DNA of 52,046 nucleotides from an uncultured Bacteroidia bacterium (GCA_902803535.1 CADCQP010000087.1:1-52046), one strand, 5' to 3'. Shown: positions 286-51,158, numbered from the stretch's first letter. Numbers and translations are program-made. The notes: generated by a model from the sequence alone, not told the origin.

Positions 286-2631
286 ATGAAACTCAGAAGC
301 CTCATCCTGCTTGCAGCCCTTTCCCTGGCTGCCGTCCCCTCCGGGGCCGCAACAGTCTATTCATCCTCCAAGACACCTCTGTCAGACGGATGGAAGTTCG
401 TCCGCCAGGACCTTGGAGGCGTATGGGAGATACTCCGTGAATCCTCGAAGGGGAAGCCTACGGAATATCCTCTGTGGACGGATGTTACCCTTCCGCACTG
501 CTACAACGCCGAGGATTCGGTGGACCCTGACCTCAATTATTATCAGGGAGCCGGCTGGTACACCAGGACCCTTGAAGTGACCAATCCCTTCAAGGGAGGG
601 AGGACCCTCCTGGAATTCGAGGGTGCCGGACAGGTGACAAGCGTGTGGATTGACTCAAAGCTGGTCGGAAGCCACACGGGTGGATATGACGGCTGGTACC
701 TCGACATTACCGATGAGATCGCAGGCAAGAAGAGCGTGACCCTTTCAGTCAGGTGTGACAACACCCGTAATTTCGAAATCATCCCCTCGCAGATATCCGA
801 CTTCACTATCGCAGGAGGCATTTACAGGCCGCTGAACCTGGTATTCATGCCTTCATCATATGTGAGTGCATTCGTGATCAAGCCCGTCCTTGAAGGTAAG
901 AACGGCTATGTGGATGTGGAGTATACATCTACCGGCGCAACTGGGGGCAAGATCTCGGTCGATGTCCTTTCTCCGGACGGCAAGGTGATTGCGTCATCGG
1001 ATGCCGCTGGCAGGGTGGCTGCAATCAAGAAGCCCCTTCTTTGGTCGGACAAGACTCCTGTCCTCTACACCTGCAGGGTGAAATGGACGGATGAAGGCGG
1101 CAACGCCCAGGTATTCGAAGAGAAATTCGGTTTCCGTACAGAAGAATTCCGTGAGCACGGTCCCTTCTTCCTGAACGGCGAGAGGGTCCTCCTGAAGGGT
1201 ACCCACATCCATGAGGACTTTGCAGGCGTAGGTGCAGCCCTTCCGGATGCCGTAATCAGGAGGCAGATGCAGCAGATGAAGGATATGGGAGTGAATTTCG
1301 TCCGTCTGGGGCATTACCAGCAGAGCGAGATGGTCCTGAACCTTTGCGACAGCCTCGGGATCATGGTTTGGGAAGAGATCCCGTGGTGCAGGGGAGGACT
1401 TGGCGGCGATGCTTACAAGGAGCAGGCGAGACGGATGCTCAGGAACATGATCTCCCAGCACAGGAACCATCCTTCCGTTATCATGTGGGGAATGGGCAAT
1501 GAGACTGACTGGCCCGGTGACTTCGAGGTGTTTGACGCAGATGCCATACATGATTTCATGGGAGAACTGACGCAGCTTTCCCATTCCATCGATCCGAGCC
1601 GCCCGACGTGCACCAGGCGCAACAACAAGAACTTTGACGTGGTTGACGTCTATTCTCCCTCCATATGGGACGGATGGTATTCAGGGAAATTCTTCGATTA
1701 TCCCAAGAAGGACCTTGCCGCTATCGAACAGTATCCCAGGTTCTTCCATGCAGAATGGGGCGGGGACAGCCATCCCCACCGCCACACCGAGGGAAAGGAA
1801 TTCGGGAACCTCGAGCGCAATGATGCCAACGGCGACTGGAGCGAGACCTACATCATCCATCTTTTCGACTGGAACCTTCACAAACAGGCCCATATGGACA
1901 ACCTGACCGGAAGCGCTTTCTGGACTTTCAGGGATTTCGCGACTCCTATCCGCCATGACAACCCCATCCCATACATGAACCAGAAGGGAGTCCTTGAGCA
2001 TGACGGGACTCCGAAGGAAAGCTATTACGTGTTCCAGAGCTACTGGACCGAGAAACCCATGGCACACATTTACGGTCACACCTGGCCGGTGCGCTGGGGC
2101 TCTCCCTCCGACAGCCACGAGGTGCTCGTTTACAGCAACTGCGACCGAGTTGAACTATTCCTCAACGGAAAGTCCCTCGGCACCAGGACCCGCAATGTGG
2201 ATGATTATCCGGCAGCCGGATTCCATTGGGATGTAGTCTTCGATCCCGGACAGAACAGCCTCAAGGCAGTCGCAACCAAGGGAAAGACTGTCATAGAGGA
2301 TGAGATCAGCCAGTACTACGAGACCCGCAAGTGGGGATCCCCGGCCCAGCTCAAATTCGACGTGGAGCCTCTTGGTGGAGACAACTATCGCGTGAATATC
2401 CTTCTGGTAGATGCTTCCGGCGTCCCGTGCCTTGATGCGGCGAACTTCGTCCGCTTCGCATTCGCGGGAGACGGAAGGCTCCTGGACAACATGGGAACTT
2501 CCCATGGAAGCCGCCGCATCCAGCTTGCGAACGGACGTGCCTGCATTGACGTTGAGTGCAAGTCATCCGGGGCCGTATCTGCATATCTGGAGAAAGAGCG
2601 GATCGGAGGATTGGTTGATATAGGAAGATGA
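286..2631 (+). CDS. Glycoside hydrolase family 2 (beta-galactosidase/glucuronidase-like), secreted
   Basis: 781 aa with a signal peptide. GH2 motifs: LEFEGA, GGIYR, FFLNGE, RLGHYQQ, RNHPSVIMWGMGNE (acid/base Glu), AEWG (nucleophile) and NQKG. Ig-like domains at the C-terminus. Confidence 0.93.
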   Translation: MKLRSLILLAALSLAAVPSGAATVYSSSKTPLSDGWKFVRQDLGGVWEILRESSKGKPTEYPLWTDVTLPHCYNAEDSVDPDLNYYQGAGWYTRTLEVTNPFKGGRTLLEFEGAGQVTSVWIDSKLVGSHTGGYDGWYLDITDEIAGKKSVTLSVRCDNTRNFEIIPSQISDFTIAGGIYRPLNLVFMPSSYVSAFVIKPVLEGKNGYVDVEYTSTGATGGKISVDVLSPDGKVIASSDAAGRVAAIKKPLLWSDKTPVLYTCRVKWTDEGGNAQVFEEKFGFRTEEFREHGPFFLNGERVLLKGTHIHEDFAGVGAALPDAVIRRQMQQMKDMGVNFVRLGHYQQSEMVLNLCDSLGIMVWEEIPWCRGGLGGDAYKEQARRMLRNMISQHRNHPSVIMWGMGNETDWPGDFEVFDADAIHDFMGELTQLSHSIDPSRPTCTRRNNKNFDVVDVYSPSIWDGWYSGKFFDYPKKDLAAIEQYPRFFHAEWGGDSHPHRHTEGKEFGNLERNDANGDWSETYIIHLFDWNLHKQAHMDNLTGSAFWTFRDFATPIRHDNPIPYMNQKGVLEHDGTPKESYYVFQSYWTEKPMAHIYGHTWPVRWGSPSDSHEVLVYSNCDRVELFLNGKSLGTRTRNVDDYPAAGFHWDVVFDPGQNSLKAVATKGKTVIEDEISQYYETRKWGSPAQLKFDVEPLGGDNYRVNILLVDASGVPCLDAANFVRFAFAGDGRLLDNMGTSHGSRRIQLANGRACIDVECKSSGAVSAYLEKERIGGLVDIGR

Positions 2632-3524
2632 AGCATATGACAGGAAAGCGATTACGTTCGTGCTGCATTCTGTTTGCCGCTGTCGCCGCTACAGCGTGCG
2701 GGCAGAAGTACAAGTCCCTCAGTCCTTTCGAATTCAAATCTGCGGTTGCCATGGATTCCCTCCAGGTAGTGGACCTCAGGACTGCGAGGGAATTCAGCGA
2801 GTCCCGCATCCCCGGTGCAGTCAACCTGGACTACAGTTCAGAAGATTTCCTTGACGAGGCTTTGTCTTCGCTTAAGAAGGACAGGGGAGTCGGCCTCTAT
2901 TGCCGGAGCGAAGCGCTCAGCGCCGAGGCCGCCCGTCTGCTTGAAGGTAAAGGATTCGATGTCACTGTCCTGGATGGAGGGGTCGTCGCATGGTCTGAAG
3001 CCGGCCTGGACCTCGCGGATGAGAATGATTTCCTTGTCTCCGTGGGTAAACCCGCTCCTGATTTCACGGTTGAACTTTACAACCGCCAGGCTGCATATGC
3101 CCCTGACTATGTAGGAGGTTCAGCCGTCACCAAGAAGGTCAGCCTTTCCAGCCTGAAGGGCAAGGTGGTGATGCTCCAGTTTACCGCGAGCTGGTGCGGG
3201 GTATGCCGCGAAGAGATGCCCCACATCGAAGCAGAGATATGGAAACCTCTCATGAAGAATCCCGATTTCGCCCTCATAGCGATAGACAGGGATGAACCGG
3301 CTTCGAAAATCGAGGCCCAGATCAAGGCTACCGGCATCACATATGACATCGGGTTCGATCCCGGCGCAGAGATTTACAATCTTTACGCCCTCCCGAATTC
3401 CGGCATTACCCGCAACGTCCTTATCGACAAGAGCGGGACAGTCGTTTTCCTGACCCGCCTTTACGACGAGCAGCAGTTCATGGCCCTGAAGAACAAGATC
3501 GCCGAGCTGCTCCGGGTACATTAA
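2628..3524 (+). CDS. Lipoprotein fusing a rhodanese domain to a TlpA/redoxin thiol-disulfide oxidoreductase domain
   Basis: Lipobox ATAC. Rhodanese motifs VDLRTAREF..RIPGA, LYCRS and LDGGVVAW, followed by VGKPAPDF..FTASWCGVC (CxxC) and ITRNVLIDKSG. ATGA overlap with the GH2 gene. Confidence 0.85.
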   Translation: MKHMTGKRLRSCCILFAAVAATACGQKYKSLSPFEFKSAVAMDSLQVVDLRTAREFSESRIPGAVNLDYSSEDFLDEALSSLKKDRGVGLYCRSEALSAEAARLLEGKGFDVTVLDGGVVAWSEAGLDLADENDFLVSVGKPAPDFTVELYNRQAAYAPDYVGGSAVTKKVSLSSLKGKVVMLQFTASWCGVCREEMPHIEAEIWKPLMKNPDFALIAIDRDEPASKIEAQIKATGITYDIGFDPGAEIYNLYALPNSGITRNVLIDKSGTVVFLTRLYDEQQFMALKNKIAELLRVH

Positions 3525-23359: not shown

Positions 23360-24396
23360 TGCATATGAAAAGATTGATTTCAGCCCTTGCACTGTTTTCC
23401 CTCCTGTGCGGATGCGGCGCAAAAGATGTGGGGGTGTCCTTCGTCCAGGATCCCGCAGGGCGCAAGATAGATGTCATCGTAGGTGGCAGCCTGTTCACTT
23501 CTCTGATCTACCCTGAAGATGTGGCGAAGCCTGTCCTGTGGCCCGTCATGTCGGCTTCAGGAAAAGTGATAACCCGTGGCTATCCGCGTGCGCCACGTGC
23601 TTTCGAAAGCACGGACCATCCGCATCAGATAGGCATATGGTTCAATTTCGGAGACGTCAACGGACTTGATTTCTGGAACAATTCGTTCGCCATTCCGGCC
23701 GAGAAGAAGGATTCCTATGGCTCCATAGTATTTGACAAGGTCCTTTCAGCTAAAGGCAATACCCTGGTTACAAGCTCCAACTGGGTGGATAACAGTGGTA
23801 ATGTCCTTATGACGGAAGAGACTACGTTCATATTCGGAGGAACTGAGAATGAGAGGACCGTGGTGCGCAGTGCCAAACTGACCGCCGTGAAGGACGTGAA
23901 GTTCACCGAGAACAAAGAGGGCATGCTGGGCCTTAGGGTTGACCGCTCTTTCGAGAAGCCCAACAACAAGCCCCAGGCGTACACGGATGCGAACGGCATA
24001 GTGACAGAGGTCAAGACCGTCAACAATGAAGGGGTAAACGGTTCATATGTCAACAGCCTTGGCGACAAAGGAGACGATGTCTGGTCAAAAAGGGCTGAGT
24101 GGACGATGCTTAACGGCACCAAGGAAGGAGACGACATCTCCATCCTGATAATCGATTCCAAGAAGAATCCCAACTATCCTGGCTGGTCACATGCCAGGGG
24201 ATACGGGTTGTTTGCCCTCAACAGCATGGGCGGCAGGGCATTTGAGCCGGGCCTGCCTCAGGCCGTCACATATGACCTCAAAGCGGGGCAGAACGTTACG
24301 TTCAGTTACAAGATAGTTATAAAGGATGGAGGGTTCCTTACTCCCGAGGAAGCCTCCGGATATGCGCGGGAGTTCAATGGGAAAGGCGGAAAGTAA
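23359..24396 (+). CDS. DUF6807/PmoA-family lipoprotein
   Basis: Lipobox LCGC. Motifs [31 protein letters not shown] and HARGYGLFA. The start could instead be 23365. Confidence 0.8.
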
Positions 24397-25297
24397 CAAG
24401 GCACTGTTCATAGTCAACCCCATTTCGGGGAGCGGAAAGAAAAAGAAGGCGGTCGAGGCGATTGAGAAATGCTACCGCGGCCCGTATGAAATCGTCTATA
24501 CAAAATACCCAGGACATGCCGAGGAGCTATCGCGTGAGAGCGACAGTTCCCTGGTAGTCGCTGTCGGCGGTGACGGGACTGTAAGCGAGGTCGCCAGGGG
24601 AATAGTGGCAGGAGGGGATCCTTCCAAGACTCTCGGGATAATCCCATGCGGGAGCGGCGACGGCCTGGCCCTTCACCTGGGGCTGAGCCGTGATCCGGTC
24701 AAGGCGGTAGGATGTCTCAACGGTTACGGGACTGTCATGATGGATTATGCGACGATCAGGGATGACACCCCTGACCGTCCGGAAGGCGCATTCTTCTGTA
24801 CTGCAGGGGTGGGATTCGATGCCGACGTTGCCGAGGCATTTGCCGCTTCCGGGCATCGTCGCCTCTGGAATTACATCGCCTGTGCACTGCGCCTATGGTG
24901 GAAGTTCAAGCCCGGAGACTACAGGGTGGTGGTTGATGGCAAGGAGATTGCCGGGAAGGCTTCAATGATTACGGTCGGGAATGCCAGCCAGTGGGGCAAC
25001 GGGGCTATGATCGCCCCGCTCGCATCTGTGACCGATGGGGTGCTCGATGTCAGTTTTTCATTGCCTTTCAGTACCTTCCGTATCCCGGCCCTGGCTGTCA
25101 TGCTCCTTACGGGACGTCTGTACAAGGCGAAGGAGTTGAAGATCCTGAAAGGAAAGGAAGTAAGTATTTATCGAACGAAAAGGGGGGCTGCCCATTATGA
25201 TGGAGATCCCTGCGTAATGGGTGAGAGGATAGACATCAGGATCTGTCCGGCCGCACTCAGGGTAGCCGTACCTCAAAAGAAGGTTGAAAGCATATGA
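24377..25297 (+). CDS. Diacylglycerol/lipid kinase (YegS/DgkB/BmrU family)
   Basis: Motifs [39 protein letters not shown] and YDGD. Confidence 0.9.
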
Positions 25298-27351
25298 TTG
25301 GCAGAAAGAAGATTGAGGATTGGTTTTCGTATTTTGGTCCGAGGCTCGTCGTGGCAGCGGCAGTGGCGGGTTTCATCACCAGGATCGTGCTGATATGCAA
25401 TCCTGTGACCGTCGTGGATTTTTCCTTGTGGGAATGGTGCAGGATTTTCCTCCTGGGACTCCTTAATGACATCGCATTCGCAGGAATCGCTCTCGTTCCG
25501 GCTTTCGTCGTTTACACCACGTTGAACAAGTGGAAATACGGCTCTCCCGCCGGGTGGATCATATGGGGCATCCTGCTTGCCGCGATGCTTTATTTCCTGC
25601 TGTTCAATGACATAAGTGACGAATACGGTGGAGTGGTTCCCGGTATCGTCAATGGAATCATGATTGCCTTTTTCGTCCTGTTCAGCATACGCTGGTTCGT
25701 CCCGTCCGTGCGGGACGGAAGCCGCAGGGCGACGGTGTACATCACCGGCTTCATATATGCCTTCCTCATCGTTGCCAATATATTCTCCGAGAAGACTTTC
25801 TGGGATGAATTCGGAGTCCGTTACAACTTCATCGCCGTCGATTACCTCGTCTACACCAATGAGGTTGTTGGCAACATCTTCGAATCCTACAATATGCCCC
25901 TGCTTATCGGCGGGGCCCTGCTGGCAGGTGCGGGTGCCTATTACCTGATGACCATCGACGGGGACGTCAGGGATTCCGGTGTGGGGACCCTGAAGCAATG
26001 GGGCGTGAATCTGGCCATCGTGGCCATCTTTGCCGTCGGTGGTGCGCTCTGGCTCCATTACGGCTACAGGAACTTCGTGGATGACAAGGCGTTCGTTACG
26101 GAACTCCAGGGAAACGGCTGCTGGAACTTCCTCGAAGCTTACAACAGCAATGAGCTCTCTTACGATGACTTTTATGCCAAGATTCCCGATGACGTTGCGC
26201 GTTCTACCCAGAGGCAGCTTTGCGGCCAGGACGCGAACGGGGTGAGGAATGTGGTCAGCGACAAGGCTCCCCAGCTGAAAAACATAGTGCTCATCACTAT
26301 GGAAAGCCTGAGCGCAGAATTCATGGAGAGGTACGGCAGTACTTCCAATATTACCCCGAACCTTGATACCCTGGCGCGCCATTCACTCGTATTCGACAAT
26401 CTTTATGCTGCCGGCAACCGTACGGTCCGCGGGCTTGAAGCGGTTACCCTGTGCATCCCTCCGGGAGCAGGGGAGAGCATCGTGAAGAGGCCTGAGTGCG
26501 GAGGACGGTTCAGCACCGCGGAGGTCCTCCAGTCATATGGCTACAAGACGCGGTACCTCTATGGCGGGGACAGCTATTTCGACAACATGGAGAATTTCTT
26601 CAGCGCCTACGGCTACGAGGTGACCGACAGGAAGAGCTATGCTCCGGGGGAGATCACGTTCGCTAACATCTGGGGTACATGTGATGAAGACAGCTACAAG
26701 GTGGCGCTCCGTCTTTGCGATTCCGATGCCAGCTCAGGAAAGCCGTTCTTTACCCACATCATGACCATAAGCAACCATAGGCCATATACTTATCCTGAAG
26801 GCAAGATTACATATGAGGGGAACCCCATGTCGCGCAGGGCTGCGGTGAAATACACTGATTTCGCCCTTGGACAGTTCATCGCGGAGGCTTCTTCCAGGCC
26901 ATGGTTCAAGGAGACCGTTTTCGTCATCCTGGCCGATCACTGCGCCTCCAGTGCAGGCAAGACCAACATTCCGGTGGACAGGTACCACATCCCGGCAATG
27001 ATCTATTCGCCAGGCTTCATAGAGCCCATGGCTGTGGAAAAGCTCTGTTCCCAGATAGACCTGATGCCGACCCTTTTCTCCCTGCTCGGGTTCAGTTACC
27101 AGTCCCGCTTCTACGGACGCGATATCCTTGCCGACGACTTCAGGGAGCGTGCATTCATGGCTACCTACCAGAATCTAGGTTATTATGCTGACGGTATCCT
27201 GACAGTGCTGTCCCCGGTCAGGAGGATCGAGCAGTTTGCAGTTGAACCAGATTCACGCTGGACTCACAGTGAGACGCTTATGGAGACTCTTGACGAACAG
27301 ACCCTCCTGGAGGCTCAAAGCTGCTATCAGTCAGCGGCTTTGAATAATTGA
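25294..27351 (+). CDS. LTA-synthase/OpgB-like membrane phosphoglycerol transferase (alkaline phosphatase/sulfatase superfamily)
   Basis: Multiple N-terminal TM helices. Motifs NIVLITMESLS, TPNLD, RTVRG (catalytic Thr), SNHRPY, LADH and SQIDLMPT. Confidence 0.88.
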   Translation: MIGRKKIEDWFSYFGPRLVVAAAVAGFITRIVLICNPVTVVDFSLWEWCRIFLLGLLNDIAFAGIALVPAFVVYTTLNKWKYGSPAGWIIWGILLAAMLYFLLFNDISDEYGGVVPGIVNGIMIAFFVLFSIRWFVPSVRDGSRRATVYITGFIYAFLIVANIFSEKTFWDEFGVRYNFIAVDYLVYTNEVVGNIFESYNMPLLIGGALLAGAGAYYLMTIDGDVRDSGVGTLKQWGVNLAIVAIFAVGGALWLHYGYRNFVDDKAFVTELQGNGCWNFLEAYNSNELSYDDFYAKIPDDVARSTQRQLCGQDANGVRNVVSDKAPQLKNIVLITMESLSAEFMERYGSTSNITPNLDTLARHSLVFDNLYAAGNRTVRGLEAVTLCIPPGAGESIVKRPECGGRFSTAEVLQSYGYKTRYLYGGDSYFDNMENFFSAYGYEVTDRKSYAPGEITFANIWGTCDEDSYKVALRLCDSDASSGKPFFTHIMTISNHRPYTYPEGKITYEGNPMSRRAAVKYTDFALGQFIAEASSRPWFKETVFVILADHCASSAGKTNIPVDRYHIPAMIYSPGFIEPMAVEKLCSQIDLMPTLFSLLGFSYQSRFYGRDILADDFRERAFMATYQNLGYYADGILTVLSPVRRIEQFAVEPDSRWTHSETLMETLDEQTLLEAQSCYQSAALNN

Positions 27352-27361
27352 AAAATAGGGC

Positions 27362-27369
27362 TATCTTTG
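27362..27369 (+). promoter_or_regulatory. Putative -7 promoter element of the Hdr-like operon
   Basis: TATCTTTG, 15 bp upstream of the ATG at 27385. Confidence 0.6.
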
Positions 27370-27384
27370 TGTGGAGATACGTGT

Positions 27385-28077
27385 ATGAACCTATACGAAG
27401 AACTTTGCAAGGATTACCGTTTCCGCGAGGGATTGCACACATGCATTAACTGCGGGACCTGTACTGCCATATGCCCTGCGGCGGAATTCTACCGCTATGA
27501 TCCGCGCCGGATCGTGGATATCGTCCAGAGAAAGAACGAAGATGAGATAGAGGCCCTGCTCAAGAGCGATACCATATGGTACTGCGGCGAGTGCATGAGC
27601 TGTTCCACCCGTTGCCCGCGGACCAACACTCCGGGGCTGGTGATCATGGCCCTCAGGGCGATGTCCATACGCCATGGCTTCTTTACTGCCAGCGAGAAGG
27701 GCAGGCAGGTTTATCCGCTTACCAAGCTGTTGACGGGCAATATCCTGAATTATGGTTACTGTGTCTATCCCGAGACATTCAAATGGGAAGACCATCAGGA
27801 GAGCGGTCCTGTCTTCAAGTGGCATCTGGAGCATCTCAAGGATGACTTTGAAAGGATCGGGGCCAATTACCAGGGAACGGGACCGGGTGTCCTCCGCCGG
27901 ATCCCCCAGGAGGACCGTGATGAGCTCAAGGCGATCTTCGACGAGACCGGAGCCACTGACCAGATCAACCTGGTCGAAAGGTGTTCCAAGGCAAAGGCCG
28001 AGGAGATGGGAATGACGCTGGAGGAATACGGGAAGTACACGTTCGAGTACAATTCCGGAAACGATTTCGACAAATGA
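27385..28077 (+). CDS. hdrC: Heterodisulfide reductase subunit C-like 2x[4Fe-4S] protein
   Basis: CINCGTCTAICP and IWYCGECMSCSTRCP, plus the YDPRRIV motif and a long C-terminal extension. Confidence 0.85.
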   Translation: MNLYEELCKDYRFREGLHTCINCGTCTAICPAAEFYRYDPRRIVDIVQRKNEDEIEALLKSDTIWYCGECMSCSTRCPRTNTPGLVIMALRAMSIRHGFFTASEKGRQVYPLTKLLTGNILNYGYCVYPETFKWEDHQESGPVFKWHLEHLKDDFERIGANYQGTGPGVLRRIPQEDRDELKAIFDETGATDQINLVERCSKAKAEEMGMTLEEYGKYTFEYNSGNDFDK

Positions 28078-29144
28078 TTTACCAGGGCAAACAGAAGATA
28101 TGGGCGGATTATCAGAAGGAAATACCTGATGATCACTGGTATTATGTCCGCAGCTGCATCAGGCAGAACTTTTTCCCGGGCTCGGAGAAGATGTTCACCA
28201 AGATAACCAGGGACGACCTGGGACTGGACATGCACGAGAATGCCCATCACACCACTTGCGGGGGCATAGCCTATCACTGTGACACGATTCCGCAGGAAAC
28301 TGTCATGACCATTGTGGCACGCCAGTTCGCGTTGATGACTGAGGCGGGATATGAGAATTACTGCTGCTCATGCATCACCTCTTTCGGCAATTACATAGAG
28401 ACCCTTGAATCCTGGCACGAGTTCCCCGAACTTGAGGCCCGTATCCGTGAGCATCTGTGGAAGAGCTGCAAGCGGGAATTCAACAAACCGAAGTACATCG
28501 CCCACACTTCCGACGTAATCTACAAGCACCGCAACGAGATAGCCGAGAAGGCGAAATTCCGCCTCGTGGACAAGAACACCGGAGAACCTCTCAGGGGAGT
28601 TGAACACATAGGTTGCCACTACAACAAGATGTTCCCCAGCAAGGGGGTAGGCGGGGCGGAGTATCCATATGTCCTGTGCGGCATGATCGAGAGCTGGGGC
28701 GGCCAGGTAATCGATTATCCCGAGAGGCGCCATTGCTGCGGCTACGGATTCAGGCAGTACCACATAAAGGCCAACAGGGGCTATTCCTTCGCCAATACCC
28801 ACAAGAAATTCGAGAGCATGGAGCCCTACCATCCCGATTTCATCCTGACCAACTGCCCCGGTTGCCCGTATTTCCTCGACAGGTGGCAGTACGTCACCGC
28901 GGAGACCGAAGGCAAGACCTATGGTCGCAACGGCTGTGGGATACCGGTATTTACATATGAGGAACTGGCCTCGCTTGTCCTCGGGTACGATCCCTGGGAC
29001 ATCGGACTCCAGATGCACCAGGTGGCTGTAGAGCCTTTCCTCGACAGGATAGGCATTGAGTACGATCCTGGCGCGAAGTATCTGGGCGTGAATAAGAAAG
29101 ACTTGGGACGCCCGTCACTTCCAGAGCATATGGTCTGCTTTTAA
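28074..29144 (+). CDS. hdrB: Heterodisulfide reductase subunit B-like CCG-domain protein
   Basis: Motifs RSC, TTCGG, CSCITS, HIGCHY, HCCGYG, NCPGC..LDRWQ and IGLQMH. ATGA overlap with hdrC. Confidence 0.85.
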   Translation: MIYQGKQKIWADYQKEIPDDHWYYVRSCIRQNFFPGSEKMFTKITRDDLGLDMHENAHHTTCGGIAYHCDTIPQETVMTIVARQFALMTEAGYENYCCSCITSFGNYIETLESWHEFPELEARIREHLWKSCKREFNKPKYIAHTSDVIYKHRNEIAEKAKFRLVDKNTGEPLRGVEHIGCHYNKMFPSKGVGGAEYPYVLCGMIESWGGQVIDYPERRHCCGYGFRQYHIKANRGYSFANTHKKFESMEPYHPDFILTNCPGCPYFLDRWQYVTAETEGKTYGRNGCGIPVFTYEELASLVLGYDPWDIGLQMHQVAVEPFLDRIGIEYDPGAKYLGVNKKDLGRPSLPEHMVCF

Positions 29145-29153
29145 ACAAGGAAT

Positions 29154-30161
29154 ATGAAAGAGACAGTTGTCATAATAGGTGGCGGAATCGCCGCGATAGA
29201 GGCTGCCAGGCAGCTTCTGTCCCTGGGCTATTCCCCGCTTATCGTCGAGCGCAGCAACAGCCTCGGCGGTCACGTCGCACAGTGGCACCGGCTTTTCCCG
29301 GACATGACTCCTGCCCAGGATCTGGTCAGGCAGATGATTTCCTCCATATCCCAGGCTGAGATATGCCTCGGAACAGAGGTGGCATCGCTCAACCGCCTGA
29401 AAGACGGTTATAGCGTTGTGCTCTCAAACGGACGCAACGTGGTGTGCCGTGCGGTCCTCATCGCTACCGGTTTCGACCTCTTCGATGCGAGGAAGAAAGA
29501 AGAATATGGCTATGGCATATACAACCAGGTAATGACCAACCGTGACCTGGAGCAGTGGTTCAATACCGGCAATGACCCCAGGGTGCGTAATCCGAAGAGC
29601 ATCGGTTTTGTGCACTGCGTGGGAAGCCGTGACCTGAAGGCCGGGAATTCCCAGTGCAGCAAAGTCTGCTGCGTCACTGCGATCAAGCAGGCCATAGAGA
29701 TGAAGGAGAGATTCCCGGCGGCACAGATCTATTGTTTCTACATGGACCTGCGCCTGTTCGGAAAGAAATACGAAGATTTCTACATCAATGCCCAGAAGGA
29801 TTTCGACATCCATTTCATCAGGGGCAGGGTCTCCCAGGTGGACGAGACCATCGACGGGGGAGTAGTAGTAAAGGCTGAGGACACTCTCAGCGGGAAACCC
29901 TTGAAAGTGAGCCTCGACCTCCTTGTCCTCATGTCCGGGATGGTGTGCAATGCGGGGTCTGCCTCGATTGCCGGGATGATCCGGGCGGATGTTGATACCG
30001 ACGGATTCCTCCGCAGCAAGGACAACGTTTACAATATCGTTGAAAGCAACAGGCCGGGGATATTTTTCGCAGGGGCCTGCACAGGCACCAAGACCGTCCC
30101 GGAGACCATATCCGAGGCCCGTTCCGCAGCGCTCTCCATCCATAATTACCTGAAGGGATGA
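29154..30161 (+). CDS. hdrA: Short HdrA-like FAD/[4Fe-4S] protein (335 aa, no ferredoxin inserts)
   Basis: Motifs IGGGIAAI, LGGH, IATGF, EYGYG, HCVGSRD..CSKVCC, YMDLRLFGKKYEDFY and GIFFAGAC. Confidence 0.88.
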   Translation: MKETVVIIGGGIAAIEAARQLLSLGYSPLIVERSNSLGGHVAQWHRLFPDMTPAQDLVRQMISSISQAEICLGTEVASLNRLKDGYSVVLSNGRNVVCRAVLIATGFDLFDARKKEEYGYGIYNQVMTNRDLEQWFNTGNDPRVRNPKSIGFVHCVGSRDLKAGNSQCSKVCCVTAIKQAIEMKERFPAAQIYCFYMDLRLFGKKYEDFYINAQKDFDIHFIRGRVSQVDETIDGGVVVKAEDTLSGKPLKVSLDLLVLMSGMVCNAGSASIAGMIRADVDTDGFLRSKDNVYNIVESNRPGIFFAGACTGTKTVPETISEARSAALSIHNYLKG

Positions 30162-30478
30162 TAGATTTCGGATTCAAGAAGGCTAAGAGCTCCACGGTCA
30201 ACCTCGATGAGGTTGACATGCGGCTCTATTATGCCGTCGCCGAAATCGAGCCGGATATAAAGCGCTGCATGGAGTGCGGCAGCTGCACGGCTGCCTGTAC
30301 TTCCGGCCCGTTTAACGGGATGAGCCTGCGGCAGGTCATTCACGGACTGCAGAGGGGAACTGACGTGCGTCCTATGATAAGCGGGTGCATGCTTTGCGGG
30401 AAGTGCTCCATGGTCTGTCCGCGTGGGATCAACACCAGGCACCTGCTTTTGACTATCTCAAGGATCTATTCGAAATGA
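30158..30478 (+). CDS. Small HdrC-like 2x[4Fe-4S] dicluster protein
   Basis: CMECGSCTAACT and CMLCGKCSMVCPRG. ATGA overlaps at both ends. Confidence 0.85.
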   Translation: MIDFGFKKAKSSTVNLDEVDMRLYYAVAEIEPDIKRCMECGSCTAACTSGPFNGMSLRQVIHGLQRGTDVRPMISGCMLCGKCSMVCPRGINTRHLLLTISRIYSK

Positions 30479-32337
30479 TTGAGGACAGGATAGCTAACGG
30501 TTTTTCACCTTTCGTAATCCCATTCATGGTGGGAATGGCCTTCGTCCTGGGCTATTGCATCATCGGGATGGTAAGGCTCCTGCTTCAGCTGCCGGGCGAG
30601 GACAGGAAGAAGTTCCTGGTCTCCCTGATCACTCCCTCTACAATGTTGAAGAATGTCCGGGACCTTTTCCTGGACTGCCTGTTCCATGTGAAACTGTGGA
30701 AAAGGAAGCCCCTCCTGGGGTATATGCATTCGAGCATCGCTTTCGGCTGGTTCATGATCATCCTCCTCGGGCACATCGAAGTCGCGCTGTTCCTTCCGCA
30801 CAGGCTGAAGACCTTCTATTATCCGATCTTTTTCAATTATTTCGTCGCCGAAGAGGGCCGGACCCTGAAGGGCTCTGTGTTCTTCTTCCTGATGGATTTC
30901 TTCCTCCTGGTCATCCTCAGCGGCATTATCCTCGCCATAATCAAGAGGATCCGTTCACGCTGGTTCGGGATGCGGCGCACTACAAAGCTTACGGCTGTTG
31001 ACAGGATCGGCCTTTATTCATTGTGGCTGATTTTCCCGTTGAGGCTTCTTGCAGAAGGGTTTACGGCTCACATCAGCGGCGGCAGCTTCCTGACCATGCC
31101 TGTGAACTGGGTGGTCCAGCATGTGTTCTCTTCCCCCGGGTTCTTTGACAATAACCTGCATATGCTGCCTACCTGGTGGGCGTACTCGATAGACCTCGCC
31201 GTCTTCATGTTCGTACTGCCTTTCTCCCGTTACATGCACATCCCGGCCGAGATGCTTCTGATCCCGATGCGCAATGCGGGCCTTAAGATACGCAATGCCA
31301 GGAAGGGATTCGCCAAGGCTGTAGTCTACAGTTGCCCGTCCTGCGGAGTCTGTATCGATGCCTGCCCGATGACGGTGAAGAAAGCTAACGTGAAATACTC
31401 TACGGTGTATCTCAACCGCCAGATACGCAGGGGCAACGAGGATAAGATTGAGGAAATTTCCGACAAATGCCTCATGTGCGGGAAATGTTCGGCAGTATGC
31501 CAGGTCGGAGTACAGGGGCCGGAACTCAGAGTTGCCCAGAGGGCTGTCCGCAAATATGCCGTCCCAGGCGATTTCTCGTCCATCAATACGGTCCCGCTGA
31601 CCATCGCCGCAGGACAGGGTACAGGCAACGTGGCCTATTTCGCAGGGTGCATGACGGCCCTGACTCCAGGCATATCGCGAAGCGTCGAGTCCCTCCTGAA
31701 GAAGTCCGGAGTGGATTACAAGTTCCTGGACAGGGACGGCGGCTTGTGTTGCGGAAGGCCTATGCTGATGGCAGGAAGGATTAAGGAGGCGCATCAGATA
31801 ATGGCCAAGAACAGGGAGATCATCCTGTCCAGCGGGTGTGACACCCTTCTGGTGAGCTGCCCGATATGCTACAAGGTTTTCAAGGAAAACTACGATCTTG
31901 AGGCTGCCGGAGTCAAGGTGCTGCATCACAGCGTCTATTTCGAATCCCTCGCGGCTTCCGGTAAGCTCAAGATAGAACATGACCTGCTGAACCTCGTTTT
32001 CCATGACCCGTGTGAACTCGGAAGGGGAAGCGGAATCTATGAGCAGCCCAGGAACCTGCTTGCCCTTGCCGGAAACCTGGTCGGGGCTGAGCAGGACAGG
32101 AAGATGAGCATATGCTGCGGTGGTTCACTCGGTTCTCTCACCCTGGACTTCCAGCAGCGTGAAGACATGACCCGCAATGCGCTCAAGAACCTGTGCGCTG
32201 ATGTCCCGGACATCATAGTTACGGCGTGCCCGCTCTGCCGCAGCACCCTTCGCCGCTACGCCGACAGGCCAGTTCTGGACATCTCGGAAGTGGTTGACAG
32301 ATTTGCGGTTGCCCGTGGACTGGAGCGCTCCGCATGA
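30475..32337 (+). CDS. Membrane-anchored Fe-S oxidoreductase: NarI/HdrE-like TM domain, 2x[4Fe-4S] and two CCG domains (HdrD/HdrF/GlpC-like)
   Basis: About 5 TM helices with His in GYMH, LGH and SRYMH. Cluster motifs CPSCGVCIDACP and CLMCGKCSAVC. CCG domains YFAGC..LCCG..SCPIC and FHDPC..ICCG..ACPLC. Confidence 0.85.
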   Translation: MIEDRIANGFSPFVIPFMVGMAFVLGYCIIGMVRLLLQLPGEDRKKFLVSLITPSTMLKNVRDLFLDCLFHVKLWKRKPLLGYMHSSIAFGWFMIILLGHIEVALFLPHRLKTFYYPIFFNYFVAEEGRTLKGSVFFFLMDFFLLVILSGIILAIIKRIRSRWFGMRRTTKLTAVDRIGLYSLWLIFPLRLLAEGFTAHISGGSFLTMPVNWVVQHVFSSPGFFDNNLHMLPTWWAYSIDLAVFMFVLPFSRYMHIPAEMLLIPMRNAGLKIRNARKGFAKAVVYSCPSCGVCIDACPMTVKKANVKYSTVYLNRQIRRGNEDKIEEISDKCLMCGKCSAVCQVGVQGPELRVAQRAVRKYAVPGDFSSINTVPLTIAAGQGTGNVAYFAGCMTALTPGISRSVESLLKKSGVDYKFLDRDGGLCCGRPMLMAGRIKEAHQIMAKNREIILSSGCDTLLVSCPICYKVFKENYDLEAAGVKVLHHSVYFESLAASGKLKIEHDLLNLVFHDPCELGRGSGIYEQPRNLLALAGNLVGAEQDRKMSICCGGSLGSLTLDFQQREDMTRNALKNLCADVPDIIVTACPLCRSTLRRYADRPVLDISEVVDRFAVARGLERSA

Positions 32338-33779
32338 GTGTCTATGCCGCCATCGACCTCAAGTCATTCTACGCATCAGTAGAATGCGTGGAGAGGGGGC
32401 TGGACCCTCTCGATACCAATCTTGTAGTCGCTGATGTCAGCAGGTCGGACAAGACCATATGCCTCGCTGTCTCTCCCTCCCTCAAGGCTTACGGCATTCC
32501 CGGGCGGGCAAGGCTGTTCGAGGTCATACGCAAGCTTGAATCAGTTAATTACGACAGACGTCGCCAGGCTCCCGGACGCAGGTTCTACGGATCTTCCCAT
32601 TTCGCATCCGAACTTGCAGCCCATCCGGAGCTGAGTGTCGGCTACATCGCGGCGACTCCAAGGATGTCGCATTATATAGACTTCAGTACCAGGATATACG
32701 GAATCTACCTCAGGCACGTCGCTCCCGAGGACATCCATGTCTATTCGATAGACGAGGTCTTCATTGACCTGACGTCATATCTGGAGAACAGCGGCAAGAC
32801 TGCCCACGAGATGACCATGGACATGATCCATGAGGTCCTCGCTGAAACTGGGATCACCGCAACTGCGGGGATAGGAAGCAATATGTACCTGGCGAAGGTC
32901 GCAATGGATATAGTGGCAAAGCATATGCCTGCCGACAGCGACGGAGTGCGTATCGCCGAACTGGATGAGATGTCGTACCGTTCCCTGCTTTGGAATCACG
33001 AGCCTATTACCGATTTCTGGAGGGTGGGGCATGGTACGGCGGAGCGGCTGGCCTCTTACGGGGTCAAGACCATGGGACAGGTCGCCAGGCTTTCTCTGGT
33101 TAATGAGGAGGCCCTGTACAAGCTCTTCGGGATCAATGCCGAGCTTCTCATCGACCATGCCTGGGGCTGGGAGCCGTGTACGATGCCGCTGATCAAATCT
33201 TTCCGCCCTGAGTCCAATTCCATCGGAAGCGGACAGGTCCTCATGGAGGGATATGACCTGAAGAGGGCAAGGGTCGTGGTCAAGGAAATGGCTGACTCGC
33301 TGGCACTTGAACTTGTTGACAAGAAACTTGTAACCGACCAGGTCGTCCTGACTGCCGGCTTTGAGGCCGGGAATCCGGGGGAGCCCCCTCCCAAGCATGC
33401 CCACGGTTCCTCCAATCTCGGGAGGCTGACTTCATCCTCCCGGCTGATATCAAAGGCGGCGATGGAGATCTTCGACAGGATAATGAATCCTGCATTAAAG
33501 GTGCGCCGGCTCGGGATAACCGCAACCCATGTGGTCCCGCGCGATGTGGCTGGTTTTCATTCAGAGGCGGTTCAGCTTGACCTTTTCGAGGATTCCGCGG
33601 AGCTTGAGCGCAGGCAGAAGGAAATGGAAGAGTCATTGAAGAAGGAACGCGCCCTTCAGGAGACCGTGCTGAACCTGAAGAAGCGTTTCGGCAAAAATAC
33701 TGTCCTCAGGGGATTCAATTTCGAAGAAGGAGCTACCGGACGGGACAGGAACATGCAGATAGGAGGACACAAGGCATGA
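32334..33779 (+). CDS. Y-family (UmuC/UvrX/YobH-like) error-prone DNA polymerase
   Basis: Motifs IDLKSFYASVEC, YSIDEVFID, TAGIGSNMYLAK and DFWRVG, with C-terminal QLDLF and QIGGHKA. Confidence 0.92.
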   Translation: MSVYAAIDLKSFYASVECVERGLDPLDTNLVVADVSRSDKTICLAVSPSLKAYGIPGRARLFEVIRKLESVNYDRRRQAPGRRFYGSSHFASELAAHPELSVGYIAATPRMSHYIDFSTRIYGIYLRHVAPEDIHVYSIDEVFIDLTSYLENSGKTAHEMTMDMIHEVLAETGITATAGIGSNMYLAKVAMDIVAKHMPADSDGVRIAELDEMSYRSLLWNHEPITDFWRVGHGTAERLASYGVKTMGQVARLSLVNEEALYKLFGINAELLIDHAWGWEPCTMPLIKSFRPESNSIGSGQVLMEGYDLKRARVVVKEMADSLALELVDKKLVTDQVVLTAGFEAGNPGEPPPKHAHGSSNLGRLTSSSRLISKAAMEIFDRIMNPALKVRRLGITATHVVPRDVAGFHSEAVQLDLFEDSAELERRQKEMEESLKKERALQETVLNLKKRFGKNTVLRGFNFEEGATGRDRNMQIGGHKA

Positions 33780-34195
33780 CGGGTGAAGACTATTCTGACA
33801 TAATTTCTCTTCCGCATCATGAGTCTTCGGTGCATCCCAGGATGCCTCTTGCACAGAGGGCAGCCCAGTTTGCCCCTTTTGCAGCCCTTTCAGGATATGA
33901 TGAGGCCATAGCGGAGCGGGCAAGACTTACTGACAATGTGGTGGAAGATGAAAGCAAGACAGGTGCGCTGAACCTGAAAGCCCAGATCCTGCGGAGTCGT
34001 CTTTCGCAGCATCCCGCATTGAAAGTGAGGTATTTCCGCCCGGATGAAAGGAAAGCGGGAGGAAAATATGTGTCAGTGTCCGGCAGGTTGAAAGACATTG
34101 ACGACGTCAGGCGGCAGTTTGTCATTGAGGAAGTGACTGCGGATGATGTTGTCAGGGTAGACGTAGAAAGCATCGCCGAAATAGAGATCCTTTGA
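33776..34195 (+). CDS. YolD-like protein (accessory partner of UmuC-type polymerases)
   Basis: YSDIISLPHH..HPRM..RAAQFAPFAALSGY and GGKYVSVSG. ATGA overlap with the polymerase gene. Confidence 0.85.
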   Translation: MTGEDYSDIISLPHHESSVHPRMPLAQRAAQFAPFAALSGYDEAIAERARLTDNVVEDESKTGALNLKAQILRSRLSQHPALKVRYFRPDERKAGGKYVSVSGRLKDIDDVRRQFVIEEVTADDVVRVDVESIAEIEIL

Positions 34196-49455: not shown

Positions 49456-49995
49456 ATGACCATGAAAAAATATGCAGTTATCGTAGTTGACATGCTCAAC
49501 GACTTTGTGACAGGCCCCATCGCCTCACCCCGTGTACACCATATCATCGAACCCATCAAGGAATTGTGCGACCATGCCCGTTCCAAGGGGATGCCGGTTG
49601 TCTATGCCAATGACTGCCACACTCCGGAAGTTGACAAGGAATTCCGTGTGTGGGGACCACACGCCGTCGAAGGCACACATGGCGCAGAGGTGATTGAGGA
49701 ACTCAAGCCGCAGGCAGGAGATGTCATCATCCCCAAGAAGACCTACAGTGCTTTCTTCCAGACTCCTCTCGACCTGATCCTCAGGGAACTGGGAGTTGAC
49801 ACGGTCGTAGTCACCGGCTGGCAGGCAGACTGCTGCTGCCGTCACACTTCGGCAGACGCTTTCTTCCGTGGCTTTGACATCATATTCCCCAGGGAGACTA
49901 CTGACACCGACACCGAGGAAGGCTATGTCGGAGCCCTCAAGTACGTCGAGAAGATCTACGGAGCCAAAGTCTGCAGTGTTAAAGACCTGTATTGA
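49456..49995 (+). CDS. Isochorismatase/nicotinamidase-family cysteine hydrolase
   Basis: VDMLNDF (Asp), NDCH..WGPH (metal ligands), KKTYSAF (Lys) and GWQADCCCRHT (Cys). Confidence 0.9.
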   Translation: MTMKKYAVIVVDMLNDFVTGPIASPRVHHIIEPIKELCDHARSKGMPVVYANDCHTPEVDKEFRVWGPHAVEGTHGAEVIEELKPQAGDVIIPKKTYSAFFQTPLDLILRELGVDTVVVTGWQADCCCRHTSADAFFRGFDIIFPRETTDTDTEEGYVGALKYVEKIYGAKVCSVKDLY

Positions 49996-51158
49996 TCCGC
50001 ACGATATTCCACATTGACGTCAATTCCGCCTTCCTCTCATGGACGGCGGTCAAGATGATTTCGCAGGGACAGCCGGATGTACGGCTTGTCCCTGCCGTCG
50101 TTTCCGGCGACCCTGACGACCGGCGCAGCATAGTAACCGCGAAGTCCATCCCTGCGAAGAAATTCGGGATCAACACCGCCGAGCCTTTGAGCATGGCGCT
50201 CAGGAAATGTCCCGGACTGATAGTGGTCCATTCCGACTTCGGATGGTACAAGGAATGCTCCCGGGGCTTCATAGCCATATGCAGGAATTATTCTCCCGTC
50301 CTGCAGCAGTTCTCCATCGATGAATGTTTCCTCGACATGACTTTCCGGCTTTTCGGCCGGGACCCGGTAGAAGTCGCCGGTGAACTCAAGGATGAGATTT
50401 ACAAGACACTTGGTTTTACTGTCAATGTCGGGGTAGCGCACAATAAGCTGCTGGCCAAGATGGCCTCCGATTTCGAGAAGCCGGACAAGGTGCACACCCT
50501 GTGGGAGGATGAAATTCCGTCGAAGATGTGGCCGCTTCCCGTGAGGGACCTGCTGTGGGTAGGCAAGCAGACAGAGGCAAAGCTGACTTCATATGGCATA
50601 AATACCATAGGCGAACTAGCCAAGACTCCGGAGACCTACCTGGCGAGGATGTTGGGAGATAAGTTCGGGCATCAGATACATCTGAGTGCCAATGGGATAG
50701 ATGACTCTCCGGTGGTAACCGAAGCTGATGAGCCCAAGAGCTACAGCAATGAGCATACGCTCCCCAAAGACCTTACCGACCCGGAGCAGGTGGATCGCAT
50801 CCTTTTCAACCTGGCCTGCCATGTGGGCTACCGCATCAGGAGGGATAATTTTTATGCCAGGGGAGTGTCTGTCTTCGTAAAGGACAAGGATTTCCACACT
50901 GTCTCACGCCAGGGACAGATGCCCCAGCCTACGAATGTCACCGCGCTTATCCTGTTCGCCGCCCGTGGCCTTCTTTCGCAGATATGGTCGGGAGGGACCC
51001 CGATCCGGCAGGTCGGACTAGGGGTGTTCAACCTGTCACATGAGTCTTTCTACCAGCTGTCCCTCTTCGAGGATGAGAAAATGGACTATTACCGGAAGTG
51101 GGATGAAGAATATGACAGTAAACAGCCAAAAGGCGGCGGAAGGCACTTCTCTGGCTAG
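49992..51158 (+). CDS. dinB: DNA polymerase IV (Y family)
   Basis: TTG start overlapping the upstream stop. Motifs FHIDVNSAF, SIDECFLD, NKLLAKMASDFEKPD and LLWVG, with a QLSLF clamp-binding motif. Confidence 0.92.
   Translation: MIRTIFHIDVNSAFLSWTAVKMISQGQPDVRLVPAVVSGDPDDRRSIVTAKSIPAKKFGINTAEPLSMALRKCPGLIVVHSDFGWYKECSRGFIAICRNYSPVLQQFSIDECFLDMTFRLFGRDPVEVAGELKDEIYKTLGFTVNVGVAHNKLLAKMASDFEKPDKVHTLWEDEIPSKMWPLPVRDLLWVGKQTEAKLTSYGINTIGELAKTPETYLARMLGDKFGHQIHLSANGIDDSPVVTEADEPKSYSNEHTLPKDLTDPEQVDRILFNLACHVGYRIRRDNFYARGVSVFVKDKDFHTVSRQGQMPQPTNVTALILFAARGLLSQIWSGGTPIRQVGLGVFNLSHESFYQLSLFEDEKMDYYRKWDEEYDSKQPKGGGRHFSG

Follow-up and report, generated by a model that had tools for sequence, protein, structure and literature searches.

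A five-gene Hdr-like cluster of Bacteroidales with a proposed role in supplying sulfite for sulfonolipid synthesis

What is a membrane-bound relative of heterodisulfide reductase (Hdr) doing in an anaerobic heterotroph? The question is raised by five genes, hdrC1, hdrB1, hdrA, c2, and F, which lie on the plus strand of a 52,046-nucleotide stretch of DNA from an uncultured Bacteroidia bacterium (GCA_902803535.1, CADCQP010000087.1:1-52046; this whole stretch is called the window below). A sequence-only reading had described them as a cluster laid out like the sHdr systems of sulfur oxidizers and had put forward disulfide respiration or sulfane-sulfur handling as their function. What it observed was confirmed, and what it made of the observation was supported in part. 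Because the cluster sits inside gene clusters for sulfonolipid synthesis in many relatives, we favor, at a probability of roughly 60%, a membrane complex that would oxidize reduced sulfur to sulfite, deliver the electrons to menaquinone, and feed sulfonolipid synthesis. We infer the direction of this reaction, its substrate, its carrier, and the formation of a complex.

Five conserved genes and an altered HdrB1 site

Open reading frames and overlaps were read directly from the sequence. The first gene, hdrC1 (27385 to 28077), encodes an HdrC1-like subunit of 230 amino acids with two cubane [4Fe-4S] motifs and an sHdrC1-like C-terminal extension. It is followed by hdrB1 (28074 to 29144), whose 356-amino-acid CCG product is predicted from motifs, trees, and a structure model to be the catalytic subunit, and by hdrA (29154 to 30161), encoding a short HdrA of 335 amino acids with a flavin adenine dinucleotide (FAD)-binding fold, one [4Fe-4S] motif, and no ferredoxin inserts. 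The small HdrC-like dicluster protein c2 (30158 to 30478; 106 amino acids) may link HdrA electronically to the product of F (30475 to 32337), a 620-amino-acid membrane subunit of the EtfD/EMO/HdrDE type with a helical membrane domain, a dicluster domain, and two complete CCG sites. The five-gene layout described earlier, joined by three ATGA overlaps (at 28074, 30158, and 30475) and a 9-bp gap between hdrB1 and hdrA, was borne out, as were the single-cluster HdrA and a TTCGG motif in HdrB. Pfam and NCBIfam called the products HdrC-like, HdrB-like (CCG), HdrA-like flavoprotein, small dicluster protein, and dicluster plus two-CCG protein, all of them far under the NCBIfam cut-offs of characterized Hdr families. 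A pattern scan gave 445 related stretches, the best 80 of which, all close kin, were analyzed. The order C-B-A-c2-F is conserved among these far beyond chance (C in 80, B in 80, A in 79, c2 in 78, and F in 74), the missing subunits belonging to loci cut by contig ends. The closest named loci come from Bacteroidales metagenome-assembled genomes, many of them labelled 'Candidatus Cryptobacteroides'.

HdrB1 has eight of the ten cysteines for two noncubane clusters. Its C-terminal site is complete (Cys181, Cys221, Cys222, Cys261, and Cys264), and its N-terminal site is altered (Cys28, Thr61, Cys62, Cys100, and Ser103), with Thr61, in the TTCGG that stands for the first CCG motif, and Ser103 replacing two cysteines. 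Ser103 is the equivalent of Cys81, which is described as a bridging ligand of HdrB's catalytic iron (PMC13083937), and is Ser in all 122 homologues; the Cys41 equivalent is Thr or Ser in 121 of the 122. Because the bridging ligand has been replaced, the N-terminal site is unlikely to perform ordinary disulfide cleavage. Both changes, Cys41 to Ser or Thr and Cys81 to Ser, are shared with sHdrB1. In the HdrB tree, the Bacteroidales, cyanobacterial, and Altiarchaeales proteins form a clade that is sister to sHdrB1 (support, 100/98), a position kept when long branches were left out and the set was thinned to 24 rows (95/96). The window's HdrB1 lay outside the sHdrB1 clade in both trees, which contained one type I sHdr reference (from an Acidithiobacillus ferrooxidans plasmid) and four type II references. 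The structure model of HdrB1 had a predicted local distance difference test (pLDDT) score of 86.7.

HdrA carries the motif CVGSR-x8-CSKVCC, with Cys155, Cys168, Cys172, and Cys173 as [4Fe-4S] ligands, and aligns end to end with sHdrA 6TJR (E = 5e-59), its best solved match; methanogen HdrA cores tie with 6TJR in score, but their alignment is split. Glu133 and Lys178, invariant in 106 of 106 homologues, are the equivalents of the FAD-proximal Glu356 and Lys409. This pair had been proposed as a check for electron bifurcation; it is not diagnostic, since the Lys409 equivalent is also present in 9 of 11 sHdrA rows. In the HdrA tree, the 11 sHdrA rows form a clade (99/97) that excludes the window's HdrA; elsewhere the tree had little resolution, and it held no row identified as type I. 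HdrC1, with eight cysteines invariant in 117 of 117 homologues, is 44% identical to the cyanobacterial C1 and 26 to 32% identical to sHdrC1 over about 200 amino acids, in a weakly resolved tree. The eight cysteines of c2 are invariant in 35 of 35 aligned sequences. The proposed kinship with sHdr is supported by the sister position of HdrB and the best solved match of HdrA.

F was modeled with a pLDDT of 92. Foldseek returned EtfD (PDB 9OJN) as the best match (template modeling score, 0.70; E = 8.8e-22), and the model assigns F to the EtfD/EMO/HdrF fold family. A membrane domain predicted to bind heme, a dicluster domain, and two CCG domains are joined in one chain, which looks like HdrE and HdrD combined and is the predicted heme/quinone membrane subunit. 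His71, His85, His255, Trp92, and Phe244 of the membrane domain are invariant in 96 of 96 homologues, in agreement with the His-containing, NarI/HdrE-like domain of the earlier description. In the alignment with EtfD, His255 falls on the heme ligand His241 and Phe244 on the quinone-stacking Phe230. By their spacing, His85 and Trp92 correspond to His78 and Phe85 of EtfD, and the sHdr-linked EMO proteins have a His in line with His85.

The resemblance to EtfD, which is described as a non-catalytic wire (PMC13083937), raises the possibility that the cluster only conducts electrons from NADH or ferredoxin to menaquinone, with no sulfur chemistry. We regard this as very improbable. No etf gene is adjacent in the window or in the neighbor clusters of relatives (one partial EtfA match lies elsewhere in the window's genome), the altered site of B1 and the cysteines of F are invariant, and sulfur genes recur as neighbors. 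Thr539 and His583 make the CCG clusters of EtfD non-catalytic, whereas F has Cys and Ile (Ile464) at these positions, and in 96 of 96 homologues of F none of the ten CCG cysteines is lost. The evidence favors sulfur chemistry over the oxidation of lactate or glycolate, as had been proposed.

Sulfonolipid genes around the cluster and across the order

The commonest neighbor of the cluster in relatives is a cysteate synthase gene (TIGR03844, 442.6 bits against a cut-off of 324.9). In 53 of 63 evaluable close loci, it comes directly behind F with the same orientation (52 by the automated count, plus L005; loci, genomes, contigs, and families carry our L, G, C, and f numbers), and genes for a VOC-family protein, an acyltransferase, and/or a short-chain dehydrogenase/reductase (SDR) lie upstream of hdrC in 12 of 71 loci. 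The acyltransferase matches PDB 7U7H (E = 3e-162), which we take to be SulA of A. finegoldii, and the cysteate-C-fatty acyltransferase (CFAT) 28EH (E = 5e-159), with serine palmitoyltransferases at E-62; by these matches, it is an orthologue of cysteate acyltransferase. The two-domain VOC/glyoxalase-family protein (L071:5443-6516 and homologues) recurs in sulfonolipid clusters and perhaps performs an additional step of the pathway.

The linkage is not confined to one synthase. In families f136 (L199 to L201) and f177 (L204), the acyltransferase gene and the gene of a different, ThrC-like pyridoxal phosphate enzyme directly precede the hdr genes in one run, and in family f84, the latter lies 164 bp behind F. 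This enzyme (L204:9412-10641, L199:7450-8670, and L269:10219-11538) scores under the TIGR03844 cut-off. The fact that it also follows cysH-cysD-cysN in L268 and L269 suggests that it is a candidate second cysteate synthase family. In L269, cysHDN stands between the VOC gene and the synthase gene, beside the acyltransferase gene, in the slot that the hdr genes hold elsewhere, so that two different modules occupy one slot. Altogether, operon linkage of the hdr genes to sulfonolipid genes recurs in four Bacteroidales families and with two different synthases.

Across an even draw of 391 high-quality Bacteroidales genomes, an HdrB match was found in 145 (55 to 81% identity among the matches listed). 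Of the 42 wider loci, 30 contain all five genes, in two cases in the order C-c2-F-B-A, and most of the others are C1B1 pairs without A-c2-F. One carrier of the full cluster is named Alistipes inops (P0516). The nearest cluster outside Bacteroidota, on a Picosynechococcus plasmid (L111:11242-16982), reads hdrC1-B1-A-C2-B2 plus a gene for a type III sulfide:quinone oxidoreductase (SQR)-like flavoprotein; at 41 to 44% identity, it is nearer to the Bacteroidales cluster than to sHdr. A related B1 (46% identity) also occurs in Altiarchaeales. The C1B1 pairs are mostly second copies (L163, L165, L167, L169, L171, L179, L185, L189, and L195), and their recurrent neighbors are a methionine-gamma-lyase-like gene (6 loci) and genes for NifB/NifX-like proteins, a metallo-beta-lactamase-fold hydrolase, and OsmC or peroxiredoxin. 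HdrA- and QmoC-like genes are added in L171 and L189, and DsrE2 in L171. These pairs are possibly a separate sulfur-handling module. On Acidithiobacillus ferrooxidans plasmids (L112:9386-13089), a lone sHdrB1-like gene lies near a GcvH/LbpA-like gene, hemerythrin genes, and hcp.

Another reading is a general oxidation of sulfide or persulfide, for detoxification or energy, from which sulfite would be channelled to cysteate as a by-product in some lineages. The SQR-like gene that ends the cyanobacterial cluster, the methionine-gamma-lyase-like, DsrE2, peroxiredoxin, and QmoC-like genes beside C1B1 pairs, and the many HdrB-positive genomes without an identified cysteate synthase all argue for it. 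Co-occurrence argues against it. In a sample of 400 genomes (146 HdrB-positive and 254 HdrB-negative), the acyltransferase was found in 144 of the HdrB-positive but only 159 of the HdrB-negative genomes, and HdrB occurred in only 2 of 97 acyltransferase-negative ones. A genome of the same genus (G642, 100% complete) lacks HdrB, F, the synthase, and the acyltransferase together. Taken with the operon linkage in four families and to two synthases, this makes a disposal function unlikely in our judgment.

The sulfite supply of these genomes was approached through CysH, which was tested in 80 of the 146 HdrB-positive and in 80 HdrB-negative genomes. Of the TIGR03844-positive genomes, 20 of the 47 with HdrB and 8 of the 61 without it gave no CysH match. 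Where HdrB is present and CysH is not, F was found in 30 of 30 genomes, and in three of these (G405, G536, and G480) the hdr cluster adjoins a cysteate synthase gene. This bears on the idea that the complex runs in the reductive direction, as a menaquinol:disulfide oxidoreductase like HdrDE that serves disulfide respiration or supplies reduced thiols, for example to CysH. Since F keeps ten CCG cysteines and has no blocking His, it may be catalytic like HdrD; cysD-cysN-cysH adjoin the cluster in L222, and CysH is present in 50 of 80 HdrB-positive genomes and in that of the window. However, the 30 genomes without CysH, including the three just named, keep F, capnine synthesis has no step known to require a disulfide reductase, and menaquinol is only weakly reducing toward typical disulfides. 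We therefore hold the reductive direction to be rather unlikely. Disulfide respiration as the leading explanation was not supported, the gene context of relatives pointing to oxidation and to a biosynthetic role, with sulfite supplied to cysteate synthase.

Of 80 CysH-positive genomes (a sample that includes L209 to L218), 6 gave a match to a siroheme sulfite reductase. Sulfite therefore looks like the end product in most of them, the other 74 having no such enzyme. It could be argued that the complex replaces this enzyme in assimilation and reduces sulfite to persulfide or sulfide for cysteine: 36 of 40 genomes positive for both HdrB and CysH are without siroheme sulfite reductase, and the chemistry is near equilibrium by its potentials. 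But 38 of 40 HdrB-negative, CysH-positive genomes are without it as well, so there is no replacement pattern (4 of 40 versus 2 of 40), and we rejected this candidate. In CysH-negative genomes, moreover, no other source of sulfite is visible, and such a reductase would draw on the same sulfite as cysteate synthase. We consider it improbable.

Points against sulfite supply, and the window's own genome

Several observations weigh against a sulfite-supplying role. Beyond two loci of the window's own family, only L174, L190, and L192 of the 42 wider loci have sulfonolipid genes nearby. Across the order, the overlap of HdrB and TIGR03844 is little above chance (47 shared; p = 0.08), and related genomes are not independent, so that p-values are overstated. 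Of the 99 HdrB-positive, TIGR03844-negative genomes, 70 were tested for the second synthase type, which accounts for 17; the other 53 had no strong match to it, a CapA-type synthase being outside this test. Sixteen acyltransferase neighborhoods from HdrB-positive, TIGR03844-negative genomes (L252 to L267) held no synthase-like neighbor. Since 50 of 80 HdrB-positive genomes have CysH, the complementarity of hdr and CysH is only partial, and nine genomes, some of them 98 to 100% complete, have the acyltransferase with no CysH, HdrB, or F orthologue. HdrB1 itself keeps Cys261 (Cys231 in the sHdr comparison), which is Asp in sHdrB1. In the window's genome, the hdr cluster and the cysteate synthase gene are on different contigs, the flanks of the cluster are uninformative, and CysD, CysN, and an adenosine 5'-phosphosulfate (APS) reductase (CysH) are encoded (cysD-cysN-APS reductase, L224, G000:C242:8366-11312). 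MenB, LbpA, and sulfur transferases were not found in this genome, which is 79% complete; two studies describe LbpA and sulfur transferases as essential to sHdr or constantly associated with it (PMC6067878 and PMC11094781).

The separation of the two loci has a likely history. The cysteate synthase gene, on contig C55, sits among the genes for RlmD, a Na/Pi cotransporter, MscS, and QueA, which flank the hdr cluster in relatives, and for this reason the cluster appears to have moved away from it. The acyltransferase and SDR genes are on contig C199. Unlike the window's genome, its relatives G405, G725, and G536, all of high quality, gave no CysH match. The term fermentative, used for this bacterium in the sequence-only reading, proved too narrow, since the genome has fumarate reductase genes (frdABC, as frdC and frdA/B-like genes), glpABC, and a MenA-like gene just under the cut-off.

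Partner genes were searched for in the genome: the MenA-like gene was found and MenB was not, neither TusA nor DsrE was found in the 79% complete genome, and MvhD had no match in it. The only full GcvH gene lies in a gcvT-H-PA-PB operon and was rejected as an LbpA-like carrier because it is an ordinary glycine-cleavage gene; the only other CCG protein was rejected as an ordinary GlpC. None of the neighbors at 122 Bacteroidales loci is an LbpA gene, and DsrE-type genes near Bacteroidales loci were seen only at the paralogous C1B1 locus L171. The statement that genes for lipoate-binding proteins, tusA, and dsrE are not adjacent thus held. A rhodanese-redoxin fusion with a lipoprotein-like signal is encoded at 2628 to 3524 of the window; as it is probably exported, it is unlikely to be a cytoplasmic sulfur carrier.

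The flanks of the cluster were also inspected. A promoter-like pattern of the Bacteroidetes type, TTTG-N19-TAnnTTTG, lies at 27339 to 27369 on the plus strand. There are two matches in the window against 0.14 expected; the -33 box overlaps the LtaS/sulfatase-family gene upstream, at its 3' end, and only 10 of 73 related loci have the full pattern ahead of hdrC. A single promoter may drive all five genes. A scan of the window for sigma-70 promoters and terminators gave chance levels only. RNA-library contigs from one bovine-gut study span parts of the five genes and their flanks; these show neither transcription nor an operon and were not used as support. Upstream, 24326 to 27351 is taken up by genes for a YegS-like lipid kinase and an LtaS-like membrane sulfatase, and similar genes near the cluster in L160 and L161 make a further link to lipid metabolism possible. 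Downstream, a fourth ATGA overlap (32334) connects F to a gene for a DinB/UmuC-like Y-family polymerase (481 amino acids), which further ATGA overlaps chain to a gene for a 139-amino-acid protein without a Pfam match (32334 to 34195). The LtaS-like and DinB-like genes are each retained in 1 of 80 related loci and were ruled out as parts of the cluster. A second Y-family polymerase gene lies at 49992 to 51158.

A proposed route and its place among known systems

In the proposed route from reduced sulfur to sulfite, the substrate would be a persulfide made from sulfide or cysteine, and the altered site of B1 would oxidize carrier-bound sulfane sulfur to sulfite, as has been proposed for sHdrB1. 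Electrons would pass from B1 through C1, the FAD of HdrA, c2, the clusters of F, and heme b to menaquinone, and fumarate reductase would re-oxidize the menaquinone pool. The two complete CCG sites of F might relay electrons or, like HdrDE in reverse, re-oxidize a carrier dithiol, and they may in this manner regenerate the carrier disulfide in place of a lipoate loop. With potentials of about -116 mV for HSO3-/HS- and about -74 mV for menaquinone, the oxidation of sulfide to sulfite is slightly downhill, and removal of sulfite would pull it forward. Cysteate synthase would then join sulfite and O-phosphoserine, and the acyltransferase and SDR would yield capnine. The window's genome, which also encodes CysDNH, would have in the complex a second source of sulfite. 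The formation of cysteate from O-phosphoserine and sulfite is described in one study (PMC13692747).

The nearest of the known systems is type I sHdr (shdrC1B1AHC2B2 with LbpA, TusA, and DsrE) of Hyphomicrobium denitrificans, Aquifex aeolicus, and Acidithiobacillus; sHdr is described as oxidizing sulfane sulfur to sulfite (PMC11094781 and PMC6067878). Like the window's cluster, it has C1-B1-A followed by second C-like and B-like units, a short HdrA (6TJR matching over its full length), a B1 in which Cys41 and Cys81 are replaced, and a second CCG unit with two complete sites. In contrast, the window's cluster belongs to a sister clade with 27 to 34% identity, none of sHdrH, LbpA, TusA, and DsrE was found with it, its second CCG unit shares one chain with a membrane heme domain, and the context of this type of cluster is lipid biosynthesis in anaerobic heterotrophs. 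Type II sHdr (shdrC1B1AHB3-etfAB-emo; L144 to L147) shares the C1B1A core, linked to a membrane protein that interacts with menaquinone and has the His pair seen in F. It differs in having EtfAB and B3 where the window has c2; the first CCG site is lost from its EMO and B3, whereas F keeps both sites, and F is 21 to 23% identical to EMO. EtfD of Mycobacterium smegmatis and HdrDE of Methanosarcina share the whole-chain fold of F, with no ETF partner gene next to F. Methanogen HdrABC and bacterial Flx-HdrABC have homologous A, B, and C subunits and the same Glu356/Lys409 pair, but the window's cluster is without ferredoxin inserts, MvhD, and Flx and has lost the bridging Cys81. The cluster does not qualify as a bifurcating HdrABC. 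Nor is it sHdr proper, because it falls outside the clade and neither LbpA nor sulfur transferases were found with it, though it likely works like sHdr.

No Bacteroidales were seen in the examined supplement of a survey of sHdr, and no description of the cluster was found in the literature searched, a coverage that excluded key subscription papers. The capnine pathway (cysteate synthase, CFAT/SulA, and 3-ketocapnine reductase, with CysDNH as sulfite source) contributes the genes that flank the cluster in the four families; the examined parts of the sulfonolipid literature name neither a sulfite source nor Hdr-like genes. A bolder version of our reading, at about even odds, would make the cluster an undescribed anabolic branch of the sHdr family, a self-contained, lipoate-free, menaquinone-coupled sulfur-to-sulfite oxidase that is interchangeable with cysDNH and allows strict anaerobes to build sulfonate lipids from sulfide or cysteine with neither oxygen nor sulfate.

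Gut Bacteroidota make sulfonolipids that reportedly act on TLR4 signalling and are less abundant in inflammatory bowel disease (PMC11525784). The first step, which forms cysteate, needs sulfite, yet no route of sulfate reduction is seen in many of the anaerobic genomes that have the pathway. If our reading is true, the cluster, whose HdrB has orthologues in over a third of the sampled Bacteroidales genomes, would name the missing sulfite enzyme and would put sHdr-type chemistry to use in biosynthesis rather than energy metabolism. It would also offer a smaller, lipoate-free model for sHdrB1 catalysis and add a sulfide sink in the gut and rumen.

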